Source: Escherichia phage LAMP. From it: a stretch of 64,000 nucleotides of DNA. How positions within the stretch are numbered: position 1 is the first letter of the stretch; every line of letters starts with the position of its first letter. Shown here in pieces: positions 7,029-61,446 of this stretch. The stretch lies in sequence record MG673519.1. One strand, 5' to 3'. The position numbers were made by a program, and so were the translations under genes. Under the pieces are notes generated by a model, which had not been told where the DNA came from, did not search any database, and saw nothing but the letters and a program-made list of their open reading frames with translations.

Positions 7029-8090
7029 ATGGCTAATCCAACTTTATTTGTATCGTATGACCAGAATGGTAAAAAACTTTCTTTTGCTAACTGGATTTCT
7101 GTTCTGTCCCCTCAGGATACCCCGTTCGTATCTATGACCGGTAAAGAGTCTATCAACCAGACTATCTTTAGCTGGCAGACCGATGCATTGGCAAGCGTTG
7201 ACGCTAATAACGCACACGTTGAAGGTTCTCGTGCGGTTGATGGTGAAATGCAACCTACCGTAATTAAATCCAACGTTACTCAGATTCTGCGTAAGGTTGT
7301 TAAAGTTTCTGATACCGCTAACACCACCGCTAACTACGGTCGTGGTCGTGAACTGATGTATCAGCTGGAGAAGAAAGGTAAAGAGATCAAGCGTGACCTC
7401 GAGAAAATCCTTCTGTCCGGTCAAGCTCGTACCGATGTTCTGGCTGACCAATACCTGACTAACTCCGCAACTGATCCTGCAGCTGTTGGTCTGAACGACA
7501 CCCACGCAGCTCGTAAGACTGGTGCTTTCCAGTTCCTGTGTGCACACAACGGTGTTTCTGCTGGTGTTGTTAAGAAAGAAAATGGCCCTGCTGATCCGGA
7601 TACTGGTGCAGTAACTGTTAAAGTTGCACAGAATGCTTCTAACCCGACCACTAACGTTGGTTTTGATGAAGCTGATATCTTTGATATGACTCTGCAACTG
7701 TACACTGCTGGTTCTGAAGCAGATATCATCATGATCAACCCTGCTCATGCTAAGATCTTCGCTGGTCTGCAAGAAAACACTCAGGGTTCACGTAAGCGTA
7801 TCTTTGAGAACACCAAGCAGTTCATCTACGAAGTTAACAGCATCACTGACCCGCTGGGCCAGAACTACAAAATCATCGTTAACCGTTGGATGCCTACCGA
7901 TGCAGTTTACTTCTTCCGTAGCGCTGACTGGACTCAGATGGTCCTGCGTGCTCCGAAACGTACTGAACTGGCAAAAGATGGTTCTTATGAGAAGTGGATG
8001 ATTGAAATGGAAGTTGGTCTGCGTCACCGCAACCCTTATGCTTCCGGAGTTCTGTTCACTGCTGCGGGAAAGTTGGATCCGCAACAGTAG
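7029..8090 (+). CDS. Major capsid protein
   Basis: 353 aa; position after scaffold; GGAGC SD; C-terminus carries a slippery heptamer leading into an Ig-like ORF. Confidence 0.75.
   Translation: MANPTLFVSYDQNGKKLSFANWISVLSPQDTPFVSMTGKESINQTIFSWQTDALASVDANNAHVEGSRAVDGEMQPTVIKSNVTQILRKVVKVSDTANTTANYGRGRELMYQLEKKGKEIKRDLEKILLSGQARTDVLADQYLTNSATDPAAVGLNDTHAARKTGAFQFLCAHNGVSAGVVKKENGPADPDTGAVTVKVAQNASNPTTNVGFDEADIFDMTLQLYTAGSEADIIMINPAHAKIFAGLQENTQGSRKRIFENTKQFIYEVNSITDPLGQNYKIIVNRWMPTDAVYFFRSADWTQMVLRAPKRTELAKDGSYEKWMIEMEVGLRHRNPYASGVLFTAAGKLDPQQ
8066..8072 (+). other. Candidate -1 programmed ribosomal frameshift site (G GGA AAG)
   Basis: Heptamer in X XXY YYZ register in the capsid frame (codons GCG GGA AAG encoding A-G-K), 6 codons before the capsid stop. 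The -1 frame is open from about 8006 into the downstream Ig-like ORF. Confidence 0.55.
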
Positions 8091-8095
8091 ACAGT

Positions 8096-8608
8096 GTGAC
8101 TGTTAGCCCTGCGTCTGTAGAAAGTCTAGAGACAGGGGCTACTCAGCAGTTTACTGCAAGCGCTGAGAAGAGTGACGGTTCTACCGAAACAACTGGCTTT
8201 ACTTGGTCAGTAACAGGAGGCGGTTCTATCACTCAGTCTGGTTTGTATACTGCTCCGAGTGCGGCTCAATCCACTGATGTATCCATTACTGCGACTTTAG
8301 AGGGTGTTTCTGGTACAGCAACCATTTCTGAAATTGTTGATCCTACCCCTACTATTGTAGCTAAGGGTCCAATTACAGGTAAAACTGGTGGTTCTTCCAC
8401 TAACTTCACTACCATGTTTACTGTAACTAATTCTACTGCTGCGGATTACACGTTTGTTGTAACCCCTGCAGAAGCTGGTACAGTAAGCGCTGCTGGTGCG
8501 TTAACCTTAGATGATGCTGCAAGTGGCGAAGTTACTGTTCAAGCAAGTTTGACAGCTGACCCGTCCATCAATGCAACATGCACTTTTACTGGTGTAACAC
8601 CTGCTTAA
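8096..8608 (+). CDS. Ig-like (Big_2-type) domain ORF, probably expressed as a -1 frameshift extension of the major capsid protein
   Basis: 170 aa, Ig-like composition (TQQFTA...TWSVTGGGSITQSGLYTAP). Sits in the -1 frame relative to the capsid, begins 6 nt after the capsid stop, has no SD or ATG of its own (track start is GTG). Confidence 0.6.
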   Translation: MTVSPASVESLETGATQQFTASAEKSDGSTETTGFTWSVTGGGSITQSGLYTAPSAAQSTDVSITATLEGVSGTATISEIVDPTPTIVAKGPITGKTGGSSTNFTTMFTVTNSTAADYTFVVTPAEAGTVSAAGALTLDDAASGEVTVQASLTADPSINATCTFTGVTPA

Positions 8609-8625
8609 AACTAGACCCTGCCTTC

Positions 8626-8649
8626 GGGCGGGGTTTTTTCGTTTTAAGA
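8626..8649 (+). terminator. Rho-independent terminator after the capsid/Ig-like unit
   Basis: CCCTGCC-TTCG-GGCGGGG hairpin followed by TTTTTT. Confidence 0.6.
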
Positions 8650-8709: not shown

Positions 8710-9462
8710 ATGGCAATGCCAGATGTTCAATACCCCATCAATACCTATGGGTGGCTAAAGAAGGCCGTGGCCCTCTGGGCAGATAGGGACGATGACGAAT
8801 TTGTTAATCAAATTCCAAACTTTATTAACTTTGCAGAGAAAGAGATTTATCGTAACTTACGCATCCCTCCTCTGGAAAAAGAAGTGTATTTAGATATTAA
8901 AGATGGAGTAGCTTACATTCCTCCTGATTACTTAGAAGCTCAATGGATGATGAGAGCCAAAGATGGTACAATCTTCCAAGTAACATCTCCTGAAGAGATT
9001 AGCTATCGTAGACAGCATGGAACAATTAATCCATCTCATTGGAATAACCAACCTGTTAACTTTGCTCGTTTCGGCAGTCGTTTCATTTTCTACCCTAGCA
9101 TCGAAGCAGACACTCCGTACTATCCTGATGATGGAAGTCCTTTGATTCCAGCAGAAAACTCAGTGATTCTTAGTTATTATGCAGACCCACCGGAGTTTCA
9201 TGAAGATACAGACACTAGTGCTATTCTTACTATCGCACCAGAGCTTCTTCTGTATTTCACCCTACGTCATGCTTGTCTGTTTGTTCAAGATGATAACGGT
9301 GTTCAGAAATGGTCAGCATTAGGAAAAGCTATCCTTGATGAAATGGTAGAACAGAATAAGAAACAAGAGTACTCAGGTTCACCTATCGCAATTCCGAATA
9401 ACATGACTCGACTTCAGAGCAGCTTGCCTGATATTTATGGTATTCGTACTTCTCGTGTATAA
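8710..9462 (+). CDS. Hypothetical virion protein (possible head-tail adaptor or tail component)
   Basis: 250 aa; AAGGAGG SD; position between capsid and tail fibres. Confidence 0.5.
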   Translation: MAMPDVQYPINTYGWLKKAVALWADRDDDEFVNQIPNFINFAEKEIYRNLRIPPLEKEVYLDIKDGVAYIPPDYLEAQWMMRAKDGTIFQVTSPEEISYRRQHGTINPSHWNNQPVNFARFGSRFIFYPSIEADTPYYPDDGSPLIPAENSVILSYYADPPEFHEDTDTSAILTIAPELLLYFTLRHACLFVQDDNGVQKWSALGKAILDEMVEQNKKQEYSGSPIAIPNNMTRLQSSLPDIYGIRTSRV

Positions 9463-9471
9463 GGAGATAAT

Positions 9472-12400
9472 ATGATCGTTTATAATAACCAAGCACCTGA
9501 TGCAGTGAATAACGTTGGGCAGTTTGGTGCTACTGAAGGCTCTATTGGAGCTTATAAGCAAGCAGCAGAGTATGCAGCTGACTCTAAATATTGGGCACTG
9601 TTAGCAGAATCTAAGTTTGGTACAATTGATGACTTGATCGCTGAAGTAGAGCGTTTGTATCAGCAAGGTGTTCTGATGAAGCAGGATATCGAAGATCTTA
9701 AGCAGGACTTTAGAGATCAAGATGCTCGTCTGATGAGTTTGATTGCTCAAACTAACGCAGCAGTCTCTGATGCTAACAATGCTGTTGCTTTAATCAATCA
9801 GAAACTTATTGAGGTTCAGAATCAGCTTGACGTTCTGTTAGGAATGTCCGTTGATGTAACCACACTCCCTCCGGGAACTCCGGCTACTGGCTCTTTTAAT
9901 CCTAACACTGGTGCAATATCTCTGGGTATCCCAGAAGGTGATCCCGGAAAGGATGGTTCTGTTAAGGATTTGGATACAGCACCAACTGGTGTTCCTGTTC
10001 TTGGTGATGTAGGCTTCTATGTTGATAAAGATGATAACACCGTTCACAAAACATCTTTAGAGAATATTGCAAACCTTATCCCATCCGTTCGTTCTATCTC
10101 TGTAAACGGCGGTCCTTCTGAGAGTGGTGAAGTTGCTCTAACTCTTGACAAAAGCACTGTTGGGCTAAGTAATGTAGAGAACGTGGCTTCTTATAGTAAA
10201 GAAGTTGTTGATAACAAAGTTGATGGTTTTATTAAAACATACAGCTCTAAAGCTGAAGCGGATGCGGATGCCGTTAATCGTGAGGCTGGAGAAACTGTTC
10301 TTGTTTGGGAAGACACTCAGTATGTATTCTATAAAGTAGCTGCTGATAAGATTTTAGATTTGGATAAAACTGAACCTCGTGTCATCACTGTTAACTCCCG
10401 CATTCCAGATTCCAGCGGTAACATCGACATTACCATCCCTACAGGAAACCCCTCTCTGTATCTTGGTGAATTGCTCATGTTCCCATATGACCCATCTCGT
10501 CCTATCTCTTATCCGGGGATTTTACCTGCTGACGGTCGTTTGGTCTCTAAAGACTTAGCTAGTGATTTGGGTGCTTCTTTGGTAAGCGGTCAACTTCCTG
10601 TTGTATCAGAGACAGAGTGGCAGGCAGGTGCTAAGCAATATTATTCTTGGGGTAAATTAGCTGATGGCTTGACCGATGCAGATTCTACCAACTATATTAA
10701 CATACGTCTTCCTGATTGGACTGGTGGTGAAGCTATTAGATCTCCTAGCTTAACTGGAGATACTTCTTATGACGGTAAACCAATAGATCAGAAACCTTAT
10801 ATTGTTACTATTAACGGAATCTCCCCTAATGATATCACAGGAAACGTCAACATAACAGCTGCAAACATAGGAGCTTTGGCTAAGTCTGGTGGTATCATGG
10901 ATGGAAACTTGGTCCTTAACAAAGCCGTAGCTTTACGCAGAATAAAGGACAATGACACTCAAGTTAACATGGTATCAAGGAGTGATTCTGATGATTCTGT
11001 GCTTGGTGACCATTTAGCTAAAACTGTTATTGCCTCCTCAGAGACTCCTATCTTCTCTAAACCGGATGGGGATTATAAATTTTATACAGAGGATAATAAA
11101 CCTACGAACGTTGATGTTGGTGCTGCTGGTATTGATGTTAATGGGGTTAACTCCGACATTAAAACTTTTACACAGAAAGTAACATTCCAGCAACCGGTTA
11201 CAGTAGCAGATGCAGTTGGGGATTATGATGCAGTTACCTTACGTCAGCTGAGAAACCAAGGCGGTGGCGGTGGTGGTCCTACGATGAACGGTATCTCCAA
11301 CTTTAACATTGGTGATTTCCGTCTTGTTGATAGCCGTGCCTTTATTCAAGCAAATGATGTAGTGTCTGACGGTCAGTTACTGAATCGGGCAGATTGGCCT
11401 GAACTTTGGGCTTATGCTCAGATGTTGTCTCCGATAACTGATTCCGAGTGGCTGGCGACACCTTCCAAACGTGGTCGGTATTCACTAGGTGATGGGGCTA
11501 CGACTTTCCGTGTGCCAGACAGGAACGGCGTTCAGGCAGGCTCTATTAACGAATTATTTGGACGCGGTGATGGTGGGGTATCCTCTGCTGCGGGTGATGT
11601 ATTCGAAAACGGCGCGCCGAATATCACAGGGTCGTTCAGAGGATATACATACGTCAACAACAATCCAAATGGCGCATTTACGTTTGCAGCCACCAGCACA
11701 AACGTTGTTAACACGACAAGTGGAACAGACACAAACACACAATATGGAGTATTCAATTTCGGCGCTGACAAATCAAATGCCGCTTACGGACGCTCGTCAA
11801 AGGTGCGGCCAGATTGCTTTGTCGGTGTTTGGGTGATTCGTGCATCTGGCGGCTTCGTGGCGGCGAATACGCAATGGTCTGTTATTAATAGCGATGACAT
11901 AAGACCGTCGGACGGTACAACCGTTACAGGTGGCAACTTGATATCCGATTATAGGGTTGGCACAGAGTCAGAAGGCTCAGCTGAATTCAAAATGCAAGGC
12001 ACTGTTGGTGGTTCATACTCTGCAAGAATTGGAGTTTATAACAAAACTTCTTCAAACGGTACAACTTTTGATTTCACTGAAGCTGGGAATATAGAGACTC
12101 CTAGGGGTCGTGTTTTGGTGAAGGGTGATTATGGTGTTGGTGTTCAGGGTGGTACAGTGCTACCTGCTTCTAACTATAACCAGTTCATAACAGACTCAGA
12201 TGGTAATTCGCCGTGGGCAGCTGCAAATGGGGGAGGTTTCCAAACTTCTTATGCCGTAAACAGAATCTGCCAGTTTTGGATAAGCTTGAATGGTTCGGCT
12301 TATGTTAGAACTAACACCATAAACAACAATCCAAAAGAACTCAAAACCAACCTTCCGTGGACAACTCTTCAGAATGCTGGAACCTCTGACGCGAATGTTA

Positions 12401-12678
12401 AAGATATTGGTGATGATTTGGATTTAAATGTCGCTCTAAGTAATATTAAAGCTCTTGAGTTTAAGAATTTTACATACAAGAGTGATAAGAATAAATCTCC
12501 ACGTCGAGGAGTTATTGCACAACAGGCAGAACAGGTTGACCCTCAGTATGTTCACAGTGCAGAAAAAAGTGGAGTTATGACTCTCGACACTAACCCACTT
12601 TTATTAGATGCTCTTGCTGCTATCAAGCTTTTGTCTGCAAAAGTGGAGGAGTTAGAAAAACAACTGGCTGCTAAGTAA
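9472..12678 (+). CDS. Tail fibre protein 1 (tail-collar-type domain, C-terminal intramolecular-chaperone-like domain)
   Basis: 1068 aa; Gly runs; block resembling the phage tail collar domain (TTFRVPDRNG...GRGDGG); C-terminal coiled coil resembling autocleaving fibre chaperone domains; about 160 aa roughly 75% identical to a block in the next gene. Confidence 0.75.
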   Translation: MIVYNNQAPDAVNNVGQFGATEGSIGAYKQAAEYAADSKYWALLAESKFGTIDDLIAEVERLYQQGVLMKQDIEDLKQDFRDQDARLMSLIAQTNAAVSDANNAVALINQKLIEVQNQLDVLLGMSVDVTTLPPGTPATGSFNPNTGAISLGIPEGDPGKDGSVKDLDTAPTGVPVLGDVGFYVDKDDNTVHKTSLENIANLIPSVRSISVNGGPSESGEVALTLDKSTVGLSNVENVASYSKEVVDNKVDGFIKTYSSKAEADADAVNREAGETVLVWEDTQYVFYKVAADKILDLDKTEPRVITVNSRIPDSSGNIDITIPTGNPSLYLGELLMFPYDPSRPISYPGILPADGRLVSKDLASDLGASLVSGQLPVVSETEWQAGAKQYYSWGKLADGLTDADSTNYINIRLPDWTGGEAIRSPSLTGDTSYDGKPIDQKPYIVTINGISPNDITGNVNITAANIGALAKSGGIMDGNLVLNKAVALRRIKDNDTQVNMVSRSDSDDSVLGDHLAKTVIASSETPIFSKPDGDYKFYTEDNKPTNVDVGAAGIDVNGVNSDIKTFTQKVTFQQPVTVADAVGDYDAVTLRQLRNQGGGGGGPTMNGISNFNIGDFRLVDSRAFIQANDVVSDGQLLNRADWPELWAYAQMLSPITDSEWLATPSKRGRYSLGDGATTFRVPDRNGVQAGSINELFGRGDGGVSSAAGDVFENGAPNITGSFRGYTYVNNNPNGAFTFAATSTNVVNTTSGTDTNTQYGVFNFGADKSNAAYGRSSKVRPDCFVGVWVIRASGGFVAANTQWSVINSDDIRPSDGTTVTGGNLISDYRVGTESEGSAEFKMQGTVGGSYSARIGVYNKTSSNGTTFDFTEAGNIETPRGRVLVKGDYGVGVQGGTVLPASNYNQFITDSDGNSPWAAANGGGFQTSYAVNRICQFWISLNGSAYVRTNTINNNPKELKTNLPWTTLQNAGTSDANVKDIGDDLDLNVALSNIKALEFKNFTYKSDKNKSPRRGVIAQQAEQVDPQYVHSAEKSGVMTLDTNPLLLDALAAIKLLSAKVEELEKQLAAK

Positions 12679-12686
12679 TTAACAAC

Positions 12687-12705
12687 GCTCCCTTCGGGGA
12701 GCTTT
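12687..12705 (+). terminator. UUCG-tetraloop hairpin after tail fibre 1 (weak terminator or RNA-stability element)
   Basis: GCTCCC-TTCG-GGGAGC followed by TTT. Confidence 0.35.
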
Positions 12706-12717
12706 AAGGAGAATTTA

Positions 12718-14853
12718 ATGTCTAGAGAATTAATGCCTAAATCCGGTATAATGATGCCACATGTAGTGGTTAACCGAGATGCTGCGGTAGTAGGTGTCTC
12801 CACTGTAGACGGAGTGGCTGGTGCAATTGATCTTACTGGTAAGTATCTACAGAAAACAGATGCGTCAGCTACCTATCAAACAAAAACTGAAGGTGCTTCT
12901 AAGACTTATGTTTTAGATTCTATTCAACCTATCATGGAAGGTGCTTTATTTAAAGCTGACCCTTTCGTAGATAACAACGTCCCTTTCCGTTCCGCTGGGG
13001 CTAATGGTGTAGAGTCTGTGGATATGATGAAAGTCACCACTGATAACTCAATCAAGATTGGTAGTTATGCTTCCTCAGTTCAAGGAGTAGAGATTCATTC
13101 TGCTGGTCGTGTTCAGGTTGTTGACCAGAATGACGGTGGTGTAGAAACTAAATATCCTATCTATTCTAAGCGTTTCCGTCCTGAGATTGAAGATTTACCT
13201 TTTGCTGCAATCGGTTCTTATGTTAAGGATTCTCAAGGTCGTACCATTGGAGTAAATCGAACTGGTATCAACTCTGATATCAAACAGTTTACTCAGAAAG
13301 TAACTTTCTCTGAACCAGTTACTGTTCCTGATGCTGTTGGTGATTATGATGCTGTTACACTAAGACAGCTTCGTAACAGTGGTGGAGGTTCTGGTGGTCC
13401 TACCATGAGCGGTATCTCCAACTTTGGTATTGGTGATTTCCATCTTCGTGATAGTCGTGCTTTTATCCCAGCTTTTGAAGTAACCTCTGATGGACAGCTT
13501 CTCAGTCGTTCAGAGTATCCAGACCTTTGGGCTTATGCTCAACTGTTGACACCTATCTCGGATGCTGATTGGTTGGCTGATCCTCAGAAACGTGGTAAAT
13601 ACTCAACAGGTGATGGTTCTACTACTTTCCGTGTCCCTGACCGAAATGGTGTCCAATCAGGTTCAATTAAAGAGTTGTTTGGGAGAGGGGACGGAGGATC
13701 TTCCTCTACCGCAGGTACCATATATGAAGCAGCAGCGCCAGACATTGGAGGGGCAGCAGCTGGCGTATCTCAAGGTACTTATGCGCAAATTTTTGGTACA
13801 GCAGTAAGAGGTGCGTTTTTCACAGATAACGGACTGTATCCTCAAGGAGCTGGTGAAACAATACCGGGTGGTACTGGTGCAACTGAAGGTCGTCAGAATA
13901 CTCTGAATTTCCTAGCAAGTAGATCTAATGCTACTTATGGGAGATACGGTGTTTCAGATAACATCCTCCCTCGTAACTTCATCGGTGTTTGGACCATCCG
14001 TGCTCATGGTGGGTTCGTAGCTGCTAATACTTCTTGGTCTGTTATTAACGGCGACACGTCAATGCCACCTTCCGGAGTTTCAGTAGACGGTGGTTACATA
14101 CGTAGTGTGTACAATGTGGCCGGTTCTCCGGTAGCAGAGTTCGCTGTCCGAGCGGTTGCAAACTCTAACGGTTATTATGCCAGAGCGTACACGAGAAACC
14201 ATACTGACAACACGTCGGGGTACTTTGATTTCCATGAGAATGGAGAGTTCGCTGCGGCTGAGTTCCGTGGTCAAAGAATTACCTTGAATGATAATAACTG
14301 GCCGGGAGTGGTGATGAAGCCTTTTTCGGCTAACCCATCTGCTCTCGGTGGTGTCACTCTTATCGAATCCAACATTGGAGCCGCTGCTAGTGATGTCTCC
14401 CGTGTGAGTCTGATTAGACGGAGGGTTGACGGTGTTACAGGTTCGATTACCGTTGGTTTTCCGCAGACAGCAGGTACTCTGGCTCTCCAAGGTACTTCTG
14501 GCATCAATTTTAAGAAGGATATTGTTGATGCTGATGCTAATGAAGCACTCGATAGAATCACCAACCAGCGTTTGGTCAACTTTGTCTATAAAGATGATGA
14601 GCAAGAACGTGTTCGATTCGGTGTTATTGCTGAAGAAGCAGAGTTAATTGCACCGCAATACATCAAACACAATCAGGAATCTTACGAGGACATTCTTGAC
14701 GAAGAAGGGAATAAGATTGGCGAGAAGACAAGGGACAGACCTTCCGTCGACGTCAACCCAATCGTCATGGATTTGATGGGGTGTGTTCAGGCGCTGACTA
14801 AAAGGATTGAGGCGATGGAAGCCGAGATTGCTGAACTCAAATCTAACAAGTGA
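12718..14853 (+). CDS. Tail fibre protein 2 (paralogous central module, C-terminal chaperone-like domain)
   Basis: 711 aa; shares the collar-like module with fibre 1 but has different N- and distal regions; C-terminal coiled coil (EAMEAEIAELKSNK). Confidence 0.75.
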   Translation: MSRELMPKSGIMMPHVVVNRDAAVVGVSTVDGVAGAIDLTGKYLQKTDASATYQTKTEGASKTYVLDSIQPIMEGALFKADPFVDNNVPFRSAGANGVESVDMMKVTTDNSIKIGSYASSVQGVEIHSAGRVQVVDQNDGGVETKYPIYSKRFRPEIEDLPFAAIGSYVKDSQGRTIGVNRTGINSDIKQFTQKVTFSEPVTVPDAVGDYDAVTLRQLRNSGGGSGGPTMSGISNFGIGDFHLRDSRAFIPAFEVTSDGQLLSRSEYPDLWAYAQLLTPISDADWLADPQKRGKYSTGDGSTTFRVPDRNGVQSGSIKELFGRGDGGSSSTAGTIYEAAAPDIGGAAAGVSQGTYAQIFGTAVRGAFFTDNGLYPQGAGETIPGGTGATEGRQNTLNFLASRSNATYGRYGVSDNILPRNFIGVWTIRAHGGFVAANTSWSVINGDTSMPPSGVSVDGGYIRSVYNVAGSPVAEFAVRAVANSNGYYARAYTRNHTDNTSGYFDFHENGEFAAAEFRGQRITLNDNNWPGVVMKPFSANPSALGGVTLIESNIGAAASDVSRVSLIRRRVDGVTGSITVGFPQTAGTLALQGTSGINFKKDIVDADANEALDRITNQRLVNFVYKDDEQERVRFGVIAEEAELIAPQYIKHNQESYEDILDEEGNKIGEKTRDRPSVDVNPIVMDLMGCVQALTKRIEAMEAEIAELKSNK

Positions 14854-14857
14854 GATA

Positions 14858-14876
14858 AGCCCCTTCGGGGGCTTTA
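14858..14876 (+). terminator. UUCG-tetraloop hairpin after tail fibre 2
   Basis: AGCCCC-TTCG-GGGGCT followed by TTAG. Confidence 0.35.
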
Positions 14877-14945: not shown

Positions 14946-15164
14946 ATGAAAATGATGAAACAAGCTGCATATGGTTTAATCTGTTTAGGTGCAGGTGTTG
15001 TGGTGTCAACCGCAGTTCCTGTAGGCGCAGTTCTTCCATTAGTAACTGTCCCTGCTCCAGTAGAGAAACTTAGTTCTCAATGTAAGCAGCGAACCATTCA
15101 AAATAATCTAGTTGTTATTTGTCCTGATGCTGAATCTAACGCTCTGAGAAAGATACTACCTTAA
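14946..15164 (+). CDS. Small membrane or secreted protein (possible holin-type lysis protein)
   Basis: 72 aa, hydrophobic N-terminal segment, directly upstream of the lysozyme gene. Function is inferred from position only. Confidence 0.35.
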   Translation: MKMMKQAAYGLICLGAGVVVSTAVPVGAVLPLVTVPAPVEKLSSQCKQRTIQNNLVVICPDAESNALRKILP

Positions 15165-15193
15165 TTTAAAGGGACCACAAAAGGAGGTTAGAA

Positions 15194-15685
15194 ATGGATA
15201 ACGCCGCATTGCCACCTGTACAACTAAACTTAAGCCCAGCTGGAATGGAATTCATCATGAAGCATGAGGGTATGAGAACCAAGGCTTATAAAGATTCCGC
15301 AGGTATCTGGACGATATGTGTAGGGGCTACGCGCGATATGAATGGTTATCCGGTTAGGCAAGGATTAACATATTCTATAGAGGATTGTCTAGCTCTGCTA
15401 GATAGAGACACACAAGACTCTGTTCGTGCTACTCAGAAGAACATAAAGGTTCCTTTACTAGTTCATGAGTTTGATGCACTCGCTTCTTTCAGCTTCAATG
15501 TTGGCAGTGGTGCTTTGAGCACATCTAAGTTAAGGAAGGTTATCAATGGAGAGGTCAAAGGTGATGTATACTCAGAGTTTCTTCGTTGGGATAAAATTAC
15601 GGTGAATGGAGAGAAGCATAGGAGTCAGGGTCTTCATAACAGAAGGGTTGCAGAAGCTGATCTTTATACCGAAGGTAAATATTAA
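15194..15685 (+). CDS. Lysozyme, glycoside hydrolase family 24 (T4-lysozyme-like)
   Basis: 163 aa; MKHEG...KAYKDSAGIWTICVG pattern typical of GH24 lysozymes; strong AAAGGAGG SD. Confidence 0.85.
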   Translation: MDNAALPPVQLNLSPAGMEFIMKHEGMRTKAYKDSAGIWTICVGATRDMNGYPVRQGLTYSIEDCLALLDRDTQDSVRATQKNIKVPLLVHEFDALASFSFNVGSGALSTSKLRKVINGEVKGDVYSEFLRWDKITVNGEKHRSQGLHNRRVAEADLYTEGKY

Positions 15686-15697
15686 TGGAGGTGCCTT

Positions 15698-16501
15698 TTG
15701 GCTATCGAAACTAATGCGGTAGTAGTTACCGACTTGAATCCACTCTATCCTAGAGACAGGGATTATATCTACGAAGGGGCGGCTCAAATCCGCCTCATTA
15801 AACAAACACTACAAAACACATTCCCCAATGTTACAGAACCAGTTCAGTTGGACTCAGATTCTCTCAATATTCTGGCTAGCAAAGTTACCTTTACTGGTGA
15901 CTCTATGGATGTTGGTGGGTTGATGATCAAGAATGCCACTCCGGGTACAGGTGATAGCGATGTTGTCACTAAAGGCCAGATGGAAGCTTTCATGCAGAAC
16001 TGGATGGCTAATAAACTTTACAGGATTGGCTCTTACTATATCACTGAAGAAGATATTAACCCCGGTGATAGTTCTTCTCTTGGTTTTGGCTCTTGGGCTA
16101 AAGTGACTGGTGTTATTATGGGTACTGGTGTAGTAAACCCTGATGGCTCTGTTCCTAATGCTCAGAGGGTTGAATTCCAAGCAGGTGGTACTGGTGGTCG
16201 TGTATTCAATACCATTCGAACAGAGAACGTACCTTTGATGACAGTTAATGGCTCCAGCTTCTCCTTATCCAGTAACACCCACAGCCACAATATGGTATTT
16301 GGTCGTGGAGATGCTAGTGGTCATAACAGCTCACCAAACTGGTATAGTCCAGGTGGTGGTTACAGTCAGAGAACGGAGAATGACACTCACACTCATACAA
16401 TCTCTGGTAGTGTAAGTCTTGGTCGTGATGATATCTCTCGTCAACCTATTAACACTTTGCCACCATTCAGAGCAGCTCACATTTGGAGACGTATTAGCTA
16501 A
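15698..16501 (+). CDS. Hypothetical tail protein
   Basis: 267 aa; TTG start with GGAGGTG SD; located in the tail region. Confidence 0.45.
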   Translation: MAIETNAVVVTDLNPLYPRDRDYIYEGAAQIRLIKQTLQNTFPNVTEPVQLDSDSLNILASKVTFTGDSMDVGGLMIKNATPGTGDSDVVTKGQMEAFMQNWMANKLYRIGSYYITEEDINPGDSSSLGFGSWAKVTGVIMGTGVVNPDGSVPNAQRVEFQAGGTGGRVFNTIRTENVPLMTVNGSSFSLSSNTHSHNMVFGRGDASGHNSSPNWYSPGGGYSQRTENDTHTHTISGSVSLGRDDISRQPINTLPPFRAAHIWRRIS

Positions 16502-33769: not shown

Positions 33770-33793
33770 GAAAAAAGCCACCCGAAGGTGGCT
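33770..33793 (-). terminator. Intrinsic terminator after the SSB gene
   Basis: On the minus strand, GCCACC-loop-GGTGGC hairpin followed by UUUUUU. Confidence 0.5.
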
Positions 33794-61370: not shown

Positions 61371-61446
61371 TGGTGCGCCCTACAGGATTTGAACCTGTAA
61401 CCAATAGCTTAGAAGGCTACTGCTCTATCCATTGAGCTAAGAGCGC
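61371..61446 (-). tRNA. tRNA-Arg (anticodon UCU)
   Basis: Minus-strand sequence GCGCTCT..AGAGC..GTAGC-CTTCTAA-GCTAT..GGTTCAAATCC..AGGGCGC-ACCA: 7-bp acceptor stem, anticodon loop CU-UCU-AA, T-loop GGTTCAAATCC, encoded CCA end, 76 nt. Confidence 0.85.

Follow-up and report, generated by a model that had tools for sequence, protein, structure and literature searches.

Two adjacent genes of Escherichia phage LAMP, here called F1 and F2, encode the two-protein long tail fibre of a Kuravirus of E. coli. Each protein combines a collar domain like that of T4 gp12 with variable tips for receptor binding and a folding chaperone predicted to cleave itself off, a layout already known from related phages. 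The best explanation of their organization is a branched fibre in which the two proteins provide two receptor-binding arms, a reading that we consider likely. The sequence and fold comparisons below establish the homologies and how old the paralogy is, together with domain content, fold matches, the catalytic residues and the mosaic boundaries. We infer that F2 docks on F1, that the fibre branches, that cleavage takes place in LAMP and that two distinct receptors are bound.

Two fibre genes of a Kuravirus

The window, a stretch of 64,000 nucleotides (MG673519.1), has a backbone 97% identical to those of the Kuraviruses Bas92-94, and on sequence grounds we assign it to a Kuravirus (Gordonclarkvirinae) genome with a backbone in the small-genome Bas92-94 clade. 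Neighbouring genes match the Pfam families for the SU10 capsid and the SU10 adaptor. The SU10_adaptor gene (8710-9462) lies directly before F1, and LAMP, SU10 and phiEco32 have in common the gene order adaptor, F1, hairpin, F2, hairpin, holin, endolysin, short fibre, nozzle. The interval 9472-14853, which a preliminary description had assigned to two adjacent tail-fibre genes, corresponds exactly to two adjacent open reading frames on the + strand, the strand of all features given below: F1 (9472..12678, 1068 aa) and F2 (12718..14853, 711 aa). Their identification as tail fibres is borne out by the resemblance of F1 to SU10 gp12 and phiEco32 gp14, and of F2 to SU10 gp13 and EP335 gp13. They are the known Kuravirus pair of proximal (F1) and distal (F2) long-tail-fibre proteins, F1 being a variant with its own predicted receptor-binding tip.

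Residues 1-90 of F1 (9472..9741) are nearly identical to the 90 SU10 gp12 residues built into a cryo-EM map on the adaptor complex (PMC9509320), and probably form the N-terminus that binds the tail adaptor. Identity with SU10 gp12 (PDB 7z47_D) and phiEco32 gp14 is 82% over residues 1-473, and PHROG 10305 matches residues 1-993. F1 has both the adaptor-binding type of N-terminus and the position right after the adaptor gene that mark SU10 gp12-type proximal fibres. However, the Pfam profile search finds no PF25670 C-terminal domain in F1, whereas this domain occupies the C-terminus of the SU10, phiEco32 and Bas93 proximal fibres (E about 1e-60). F1 is therefore a variant of the SU10 gp12-type family, one common to PAS59, EK010, E20-1 and SDYTW1. 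Where PF25670 usually stands, F1 has an S74 chaperone preceded by a collar module and variable islands, in the manner of F2 and DT57C LtfA.

Residues 241-470 of F1 (10192..10881) include a first, degenerate collar-like motif, IRLPDW, and are 40-53% identical to residues 225-452 of DT57C LtfA. A contact for LtfB was proposed by Golomidova 2016 on the stretch equated with phiEco32 gp14 239-508 (PMC4728585); by this correspondence, F1 241-470 would be the docking region for F2. F1 next carries the first copy of a gp12-like collar module (residues 556-702, 11137..11577), recognized by its identity with F2 183-327. Variable island 1, an insertion in the gp12-like domain, follows (703-776, 11578..11799); it is only 31-34% identical to the F1 proteins of SDYTW1 and PAS59 between flanks that are 78-96% identical, and nucleotide similarity is lost at 11577-11800. 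A conserved core (FVGVWVIRASGGFVAANT) and a distal T5-like tip then extend to the predicted cleavage residue Ser972 (777-972, 11800..12387), with 84-96% identity to SDYTW1 and PAS59 over tip residues 831-971. The remainder (973-1068, 12388..12675) is an intramolecular chaperone (PF13884) that is predicted to be released.

PHROG 6921 matches F2 end to end, and the protein has the conserved N-terminus of ~177 residues, the gp12-like centre and the S74 end of the distal-fibre type; sequence comparison thus identifies it as a homologue of the distal fibres SU10 gp13, phiEco32 gp15 and EP335 gp13. Homologue alignments delimit a conserved N-terminal attachment region (residues 1-177, 12718..13248), LtfB-like in its first 45 residues and 82-92% identical across 84 Gordonclarkvirinae records. 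The second copy of the gp12-like collar module (178-327, 13249..13698) is followed by variable island 1 (328-414, 13699..13959), distinguished by its pattern of identity among orthologues: 93% with Bas93 F2, yet 29-37% with SDYTW1, PAS59, SU10 and EP335. A conserved core (FIGVWTIRAHGGFVAANTSWSVIN; 415-465, 13960..14112) retains 63-73% identity in all orthologues compared and forms an isolated patch of nucleotide similarity at 13969-14056. Variable island 2, the distal T5-like tip, ends at the predicted cleavage residue Ser594 (466-594, 14113..14499); the nearest relative of this tip is just 55-58% identical. The intramolecular chaperone (595-711, 14500..14850), with a C-terminal helix at 679-710, is again predicted to be released. 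The structural model of F2 has a pLDDT <40 over its first ~250 residues, so that neither the shaft of the fibre nor its attachment region is modelled.

The chaperone-like C-termini attributed to both proteins are supported by Peptidase_S74 (PF13884) matches at F1 972-1027 (40.4 bits) and F2 596-647 (35.7 bits), above the Pfam cut-off of 22. Each contains a Ser-x4-Lys dyad (S972/K977 in F1, S594/K599 in F2) that aligns with Ser621 of EP335 gp13 and with the dyads of DT57C LtfA/LtfB and SU10 gp13, and the Ser and Lys columns are invariant in 84 homologues. The modelled chaperone fold agrees with the solved structures from K1F (3GW6), GA-1 (3GUD) and MyRF (7DC3). In EP335, release of the gp13 chaperone after Ser621 was measured by ESI-LC-MS (PMC8217332). 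By analogy, LAMP F1 and F2 would undergo autocleavage after Ser972 and Ser594, respectively.

A UUCG hairpin does follow each gene, as first described, and both hairpins are kept in relatives. The first, GCUCCC-UUCG-GGGAGC (12687-12702; -12.2 kcal/mol, z -2.7), has a 6-bp G+C stem, is followed by only UUU and lies 3 nt ahead of the ribosome-binding site of F2, AAGGAG (12706-12711); it is identical in SU10, phiEco32, SDYTW1, PAS59 and Bas93. The second, AAGCCCC-UUCG-GGGGCUU (14857-14874), has a 7-bp stem followed by UAGUAG, and its value of -14.6 kcal/mol refers to a folded 50-nt stretch that includes a second small stem. It is kept in SU10, phiEco32, SDYTW1 and PAS59 and is missing from Bas93, in which the end of F2 has been rearranged. 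In the 64 kb, CCCTTCGGGG is found at just the two hairpin sites, with 0 occurrences expected.

Extent and age of the F1-F2 homology

The preliminary description had reported a central module of about 160 aa at roughly 75% identity. The module itself is real, with 77.9% identity over 145 ungapped residues (F1 558-702 versus F2 183-327), but the similarity reaches further than that account allowed: F1 553-1066 and F2 178-705 align with 43% identity over about 520 aa (E 7e-120), through to the C-terminus. Because the Gly run contributes just 6-7 of the 145 module residues, the similarity is not a matter of low complexity. The motif TTFRVPDRNG is found in both proteins, and the N-terminal regions are unrelated as claimed, BLASTP of F1 1-552 against F2 1-177 returning no significant match. 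The distal tips, in contrast, had wrongly been called unrelated. A second conserved core (F1 777-830 versus F2 415-465) is about 60% identical, the chaperone starts are 40-45% identical, and the only two truly divergent islands are F1 703-776 versus F2 328-414 and F1 831-971 versus F2 466-593.

The proposed tail-collar nature of the module receives no support at the Pfam threshold, as the Collar profile (PF07484) scores 19.6 bits at F2 294-311, under the cut-off of 24, and gives no match in F1. A distant homologue, Erwinia phage KEY gp021, passes the same profile with 30.9 bits. In the predicted F2 structure, the best fold matches of the module are the collar regions of T4 gp12 and gp37. Since the Pfam match is sub-threshold, the collar assignment rests on this fold comparison.

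The adjacency of F1 and F2 and a 300-nt direct repeat with 74% identity (11142-11441 and 13263-13562) could suggest that the module was duplicated in tandem not long ago, or that gene conversion still links the two genes in this genome. We tested this explanation and reject it as exceedingly improbable. The two module copies have only 72.6% nucleotide identity (49.7% at third codon positions) and a longest identical run of 17 nt, and dS is about 1.45, near saturation. Moreover, modules group by gene: F1 modules of different phages are 90% identical, as is the LAMP module to that of SDYTW1, and F2 modules are 82-98% identical, whereas F1 and F2 modules in any phage are 74-79% identical. The paralogy is therefore old and there has been no recent gene conversion. 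Both copies are under purifying selection, with a dN/dS of about 0.12.

Exchange between phages is nonetheless evident. Nucleotide similarity of F2 to SU10, phiEco32 and NJ01 breaks off where the module ends (about 13656-13703) and returns at 14848, with the stop codon and hairpin; F1 follows the same pattern, with similarity lost at about 10740 and regained at 12662. Thus, of the earlier picture of duplicated, recombining cassettes, exchange at module boundaries in related phages stands, but neither a recent duplication nor ongoing recombination between F1 and F2 does. The distribution of identity indicates that in each gene two variable islands, flanked by conserved sequence, have been exchanged independently of one another, and not as one cassette.

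Models of the assembled fibre

In the branched arrangement that we favour, the first ~90 residues of F1 would bind the tail adaptor, and the N-terminus of F2 would dock at F1 residues ~241-470. F1 and F2 would each be trimeric and would together form the long tail fibre. F1 would terminate in a receptor-binding end of the F2 type, consisting of a collar with a variable insertion, the core, a T5-like tip and an S74 chaperone. The chaperone is predicted to drive trimer folding and then to cut itself off after Ser972 in F1 or Ser594 in F2. Once assembled, the fibre would fork into two arms, and each arm could recognize a surface glycan of its own, as in DT57C LtfA/LtfB. Host range would shift by exchange of the variable islands, with the collar module, the core and the hairpin-bearing gene ends serving as homologous flanks.

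A linear fibre is an alternative that we judge unlikely. F2 would then sit end-on at the far end of F1 in a fibre that has one elbow and just one functional tip, that of F2, and the F2-like end of F1 would act only as shaft and joint. In SU10, gp12 is proximal and gp13 distal, with one elbow between segments of 300 Å and 400 Å (PMC9509320), and F1 has residues 1-473 in common with SU10 gp12. Nevertheless, the S74 domain of F1 retains Ser972 and Lys977 intact, and the end exposed by its removal would be a receptor-binding-type tip, which is no known docking platform. The stretch that F1 has in common with LtfA and with all proximal fibres is found further upstream, at 241-470. The hypervariable island at 703-776, set amid conserved flanks, carries the hallmark of a surface that contacts receptors, and depositors annotated the F1 ortholog in PAS59 as RBP1. 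The linear shape described for the SU10 fibre, with its one elbow, does count against the branched reading (PMC9509320).

It is also conceivable, though highly improbable, that F1 carries in its distal half the decaying remnant of an earlier fusion, unable to fold or to bind. Most Kuraviruses do without it and have a canonical proximal fibre ending in PF25670, and the F2 of Bas93, which lacks the chaperone, is an example of truncation at a fibre end within the group. However, the F1 reading frame is intact over its 1068 aa and all family-invariant residues are retained, the catalytic pair included. The low dN/dS of the module, as well as conservation of the architecture (79-87% identity) in four further phages from two annotated genera, likewise argue against decay and for the two-armed fibre.

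Comparison with known fibres

F2 closely resembles SU10 gp13 at residues 1-327 (82-89% identical by segment) and, like SU10 gp13 and phiEco32 gp15, combines a gp12-like domain with an S74 chaperone; its variable islands differ, with just 21-29% identity to their SU10 gp13 counterparts. EP335 gp13 is similarly close in the N-terminus (82%) and module (88%), and its Ser621 aligns with F2 Ser594. That protein has a gp12-like centre by HHpred and binds O157 and O26 (PMC8217332). The EP335 tips are 21-32% identical to that of F2, and the O157/O26 specificity is therefore not transferable. The proximal fibres of SU10, phiEco32, Bas93 and EP335 end in PF25670 ("Phage_tail_C_2"), unlike the S74-ended F1; the S74 domain was not found in those of SU10, phiEco32 and Bas93, EP335 gp12 being compared by BLASTP only.

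The two-protein architecture with an S74-ended F1 of 1066-1073 aa recurs in PAS59 (RBP1/RBP2), EK010, E20-1 and SDYTW1-F1-2-2_3. Overall F1 identity is 79-87% in this group (86.7% for SDYTW1, 78.9% for PAS59 RBP1). LAMP differs from these phages, whose pairs are known from sequence, in the first F1 island, in the F2 tips (20-37% identical) and in its small-genome Bas92-94 backbone. We give an even chance to the idea that in this small lineage, LAMP included, the proximal PF25670 end was replaced long ago by a duplicate of the receptor-binding half of the distal protein. All six fibres would then fork into two arms and offer as many as four receptor-binding surfaces each (two gp12-like and two T5-like), which would evolve as four islands open to separate exchange. 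If true, the lineage would represent a natural multi-specific podovirus fibre, contradicting the linear picture from SU10.

T-shaped fibres with two receptor-binding domains have been described in the BASEL collection (Bas87 gp10, Bas32 gp24 and Bas99 gp114) and horizontal transfer has spread them across Gordonclarkvirinae, Tequintavirus and Wifcevirus (10.1101/2024.09.12.612763). They have the same domain series of gp12-like RBD1, T5-like RBD2 and chaperone, but in the distal protein only, whereas in LAMP both F1 and F2 carry it. For the tips of F1 and F2, the nearest relatives include T5-like phages (DT57C and SP3), a Dhillonvirus, and phages or contigs of 68-69 kb.

A parallel to the whole pair is provided by LtfA/LtfB of the T5-like siphovirus DT57C, whose branched tail fibres are L-shaped; here too, two adjacent fibre genes have S74 ends. 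F1 207-1066 aligns with LtfA 194-1070 (8hqz_d; E 4e-157), F2 203-710 matches LtfA as well (E 5.5e-182), the F2 chaperone being 93-97% identical to that of LtfA, and F2 1-45 resembles LtfB 1-45. Two features of a DT57C-type branched fibre, an LtfA-like docking stretch in F1 and an LtfB-like start of F2, are thus present. On the other hand, DT57C has a siphovirus virion, the variable islands are 10-45% identical, and the N-terminus of LtfA attaches to LtfC, the collar protein of T5, whereas that of F1 is of the Kuravirus adaptor type; the F1/LtfA alignment begins only at F1 207-213, and the T5-type LtfC-binding N-terminus is absent from F1. By these alignments, F1 and F2 fall outside the T5 fibre family. 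Genetic evidence that LtfB is attached through LtfA and that the pair confers two O-antigen specificities, O22-like and O81, comes from DT57C and DT571/2 only; the branched fibre was inferred for DT57C, and branching of phiEco32 gp14/gp15 was cited as a personal communication (PMC4728585). The two host specificities originally suggested for LAMP fit this homologous pair, and by analogy F1 and F2 may function like LtfA and LtfB.

Locus and identity of the two genes

The limits noted for the feature coincide exactly with two adjacent plus-strand ORFs, F1 (9472..12678, 1068 aa) and F2 (12718..14853, 711 aa). This pair is the known proximal and distal long-tail-fibre pair, which corrects the account in the preliminary description. 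The neighbouring genes and their order identify the element as one of the SU10/phiEco32 kind. An SU10-type major capsid protein gene (7029-8090) is followed directly on its 3' side, in the -1 frame, by an Ig-like ORF (8096-8608; GTG start as listed) and then by an SU10-type adaptor gene (8710-9462). Between the long-tail-fibre genes and a short-tail-fibre gene (15698-16501; 267 aa, Gp10_C domain) lie, at 14946-15685, genes for a 72-aa holin and a 163-aa endolysin; a Big_2 protein of 1005 aa is encoded nearby in the window. Gene order is the same in SU10 and phiEco32, including the position of holin and endolysin between long- and short-tail-fibre genes. The Kuravirus capsid protein occurs in normal and extended forms via ribosomal slippage (Batinovic et al. 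2023, PMC9965538).

Bas92-94, assigned in the BASEL preprint to the 67-69 kb clade of Kuravirus, are 97% identical to the window across a 25-kb stretch. The fibre locus is far less conserved than this backbone, and no phage record reaches 80% coverage of it. Elsewhere in the window, a single tRNA-Arg gene (anticodon TCT) lies at 61371-61446 on the minus strand, and the sign of the GC skew flips near 30 kb, which suggests that the structural genes and the remainder of the genome are transcribed in different directions, with the switch at about that point.

Residues 1-473 of F1 are 82% identical to SU10 gp12 (PDB 7z47) and phiEco32 gp14. SU10 gp12 is the proximal long-tail-fibre protein, whose residues 1-90 sit on the adaptor complex (cryo-EM, PMC9509320). 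F1 207-1066 also matches LtfA of the T5-like phage DT57C (PDB 8hqz; E 4e-157), with 40-53% identity between F1 241-470 and LtfA 225-452. F2, for its part, carries at residues 1-177 a distal-protein N-terminus that is 82-92% identical in 84 phage records, the distal proteins compared including SU10 gp13, phiEco32 gp15 and EP335 gp13. Its first 45 residues align with the first 45 of LtfB, the partner of LtfA, and residues 203-710 match LtfA (E 5.5e-182). NCBIfam holds no family that matches F1 or F2.

For the tail-collar character proposed in the preliminary description, a match to the Collar family occurs in F2 alone and falls below threshold, and the claim rests on fold comparison, which does reveal a gp12-like domain. 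An AlphaFold2 model of F2, for which 84 homologs were used, has high confidence from residue 254 on. Because Foldseek with the whole model recovered the chaperone alone and missed the gp12-like domain, the comparison of the latter was made with a separate domain model. The resulting fold evidence is in line with what HHpred gave for EP335 gp13 (PMC8217332) and with the T-shaped fibres described in BASEL, in which a gp12-like RBD1, a T5-like RBD2 and a chaperone are combined. We claim no second collar domain for F1. The IRLPDW stretch of this protein (residues 320-430) gave nothing significant against the shared module in BLASTP (E 1.3), and support is indirect, through its equivalent in LtfA (residues 341-400), which matches F2 250-310 (E 8e-6).

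Old paralogy and mosaic tips

F1 553-1066 and F2 178-705 are 43% identical (BLASTP, E 7e-120). Within this region the shared central module proposed earlier is evident as an ungapped alignment of F1 558-702 with F2 183-327, in which 77.9% of 145 residues are identical; glycines form a minor portion of the module, and the similarity is not confined to a Gly run. BLASTP likewise finds the N-terminal parts of the two proteins unrelated, as had been stated. The claim that the tips are unrelated fails, as homology continues past the module. Identity drops to 15-30% beyond GRGDGG. A second core (FVGVWVIRASGGFVAANT.WSVIN) is again ∼60% identical, the distal tip is once more poorly conserved, and identity is 40-45% where the C-terminal domain begins.

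The two copies had been described as duplicated and recombining. We find no trace of recent duplication or gene conversion, both of which are ruled out by synonymous divergence, and the paralogy is old. Module nucleotide identity is 72.6% overall and 49.7% at third codon positions, dS is ∼1.45 and dN 0.175 (Nei-Gojobori), and no identical run exceeds 17 nt. Across phages, F1 modules most resemble one another (90%), as do F2 modules (82-98%), with F1-versus-F2 identity at 74-79% in every combination compared. Over its first 40 residues (NSDIKTFTQKVTF...) the F1 module belongs to the Kuravirus F2 type and not to that of the PGT2 fibre (P0006) or of the comparison sequences P0001 and P0107. Their type suggests that an F2-like half was fused onto the proximal protein long ago, inside this phage group.

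Exchange relative to related phages, also anticipated earlier, is indeed seen, although it involves two separate islands per gene and not one cassette. F1 703-776 is 31-34% identical to SDYTW1-F1-2-2_3 and PAS59, whereas every other F1 segment is 67-96% identical. In F2, island 1 (residues 328-414) is 93% identical to Bas93 and 29-37% to the other four orthologs, and island 2 (466-593) is 20-26% identical to all orthologs compared; the core between them stays at 63-73%. For the whole F2 tip, the nearest phage relatives are 55-58% identical, with none above. Nucleotide similarity to SU10 and phiEco32 returns at 12662 and 14848, where the genes end and their hairpins lie.

Chaperone domains and UUCG hairpins

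Both proteins score above the Pfam threshold for Peptidase_S74, bearing out the chaperone-like C-termini proposed for them. Catalytic residues were placed by alignment, since a phmmer search of the PDB with the F1 chaperone returned LtfA as the sole significant match. An 84-sequence alignment shows no variation at F2 Ser594 and Lys599, and the equivalent pair in F1 is Ser972 and Lys977. EP335 gp13 loses its chaperone after Ser621 (ESI-LC-MS, PMC8217332), a residue that aligns with F2 Ser594 and F1 Ser972. By homology, mature lengths of 972 (F1) and 594 (F2) residues are predicted.

The F2 chaperone (residues 618-697; 14572-14811) is 93-97% identical at the protein level to that of DT57C LtfA, whereas the adjoining tip is 23-45% identical, which places an exchange breakpoint near the cleavage site. 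In Bas93 (PQ850593.1, 6602-9037) the F2 protein of 625 aa has residues 1-444 in common with F2 of the window. Unlike the latter, it then continues into unrelated sequence that lacks an S74 domain and hairpin 2, and three small ORFs come next. Its chaperone is described as truncated by the BASEL authors.

UUCG hairpins are present at both gene ends, as first reported. CCCTTCGGGG occurs at just two sites in the window, corresponding to hairpin 1 (12687-12702, 3' of F1) and hairpin 2 (14857-14874, 3' of F2), and both hairpins are kept in SU10, phiEco32, SDYTW1-F1-2-2_3 and PAS59. Their G+C-rich stems of six and seven pairs, respectively, carry UUCG loops, and hairpin 1 ends 3 nt 5' of the F2 ribosome-binding site. 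We reject canonical intrinsic terminators as their identity: each is followed by 3 U only, neither was called in a consensus terminator scan of the plus strand, and the SU10 record annotates a terminator 3' of the Ig-like gene and none 3' of gp12 or gp13. The hairpins may instead serve as a weak terminator, in 3' end protection or as a processing site.

Just 3' of the Ig-like gene (8613-8636), at the position of the terminator annotated in SU10, lies a third UUCG hairpin, whose 10-pair stem precedes a U-run. It is much stronger than hairpins 1 and 2 (-19.2 kcal/mol for a folded 45-nt stretch; z -3.7). A fourth CCTTCGGG motif, at 33781-33788 on the minus strand in a leftward-transcribed region, may be another UUCG hairpin.

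Fibre architecture and relation to known systems

Golomidova et al. connected LtfA/LtfB with the gp14/gp15 pair of phiEco32 and put forward attachment of LtfB to the virion by way of LtfA (PMC4728585); the equivalents of F1 241-470 and F2 1-45 are the exact stretches to which they pointed. In the proposed mechanism F1 trimers bind the adaptor and, by analogy with homologs, F2 trimers would dock by their N-termini at about residues 241-470 of F1. The chaperones would help both proteins fold and then be cleaved off, giving a fibre with two arms of different glycan specificity. The main rival to such a branched fibre, the linear arrangement depicted for SU10, fits poorly with a proximal protein whose end is a processed tip of its own. 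The long F1 bears on the linear-versus-branched question for Kuravirus fibres.

The locus also offers a clean natural case of receptor-binding parts moving among unrelated phage groups, given an F2 chaperone 93-97% identical to that of a T5-like siphovirus beside a tip at 23-45%. Kuraviruses are used in therapy and biocontrol against pathogenic E. coli, and the exact segment boundaries found here could guide engineering of their host range.

The feature is real, correctly located and of an already described kind. Its preliminary description needs three corrections, namely that the tips are homologous, that the paralogy is old and that the genes form a known proximal/distal pair. Earlier publications cover the gene pair, its chaperone and gp12-like domain, and the horizontal exchange of all these.

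The end of F1 sets it apart from its counterparts. SU10 gp12 (786 aa), phiEco32 gp14 (880 aa) and Bas93 gp8 (852 aa) have the PF25670 end usual for proximal fibres and lack S74, and EP335 gp12 has the same kind of end by BLASTP. F1 departs from these proteins past about residue 473, with nucleotide similarity to SU10, phiEco32 and NJ01 ending at 10740, and continues through the collar module, a variable island, a conserved core, a distal tip and the S74 domain. An IMG/VR scan with the F1 N-terminus gave three loci only, and GenBank phage records were therefore used for comparisons. A tblastn search covered 50,697 phage records, and among the Gordonclarkvirinae matches that it listed, a second copy occurs in only five: SDYTW1-F1-2-2_3, PAS59, EK010 (two records) and E20-1. 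In SDYTW1-F1-2-2_3 (OR296290.1, 4001-9394) neither long-tail-fibre gene is annotated, although both are present as intact ORFs (1066 and 717 aa). With these five records, the names RBP1 and RBP2 given to the pair by the PAS59 depositors, and PHROG 10305, which matches F1 residues 1-993, the S74-ended form is already in databases. We found no paper analysing it, and it is an uncommon variant of the known proximal protein that is worth a note.
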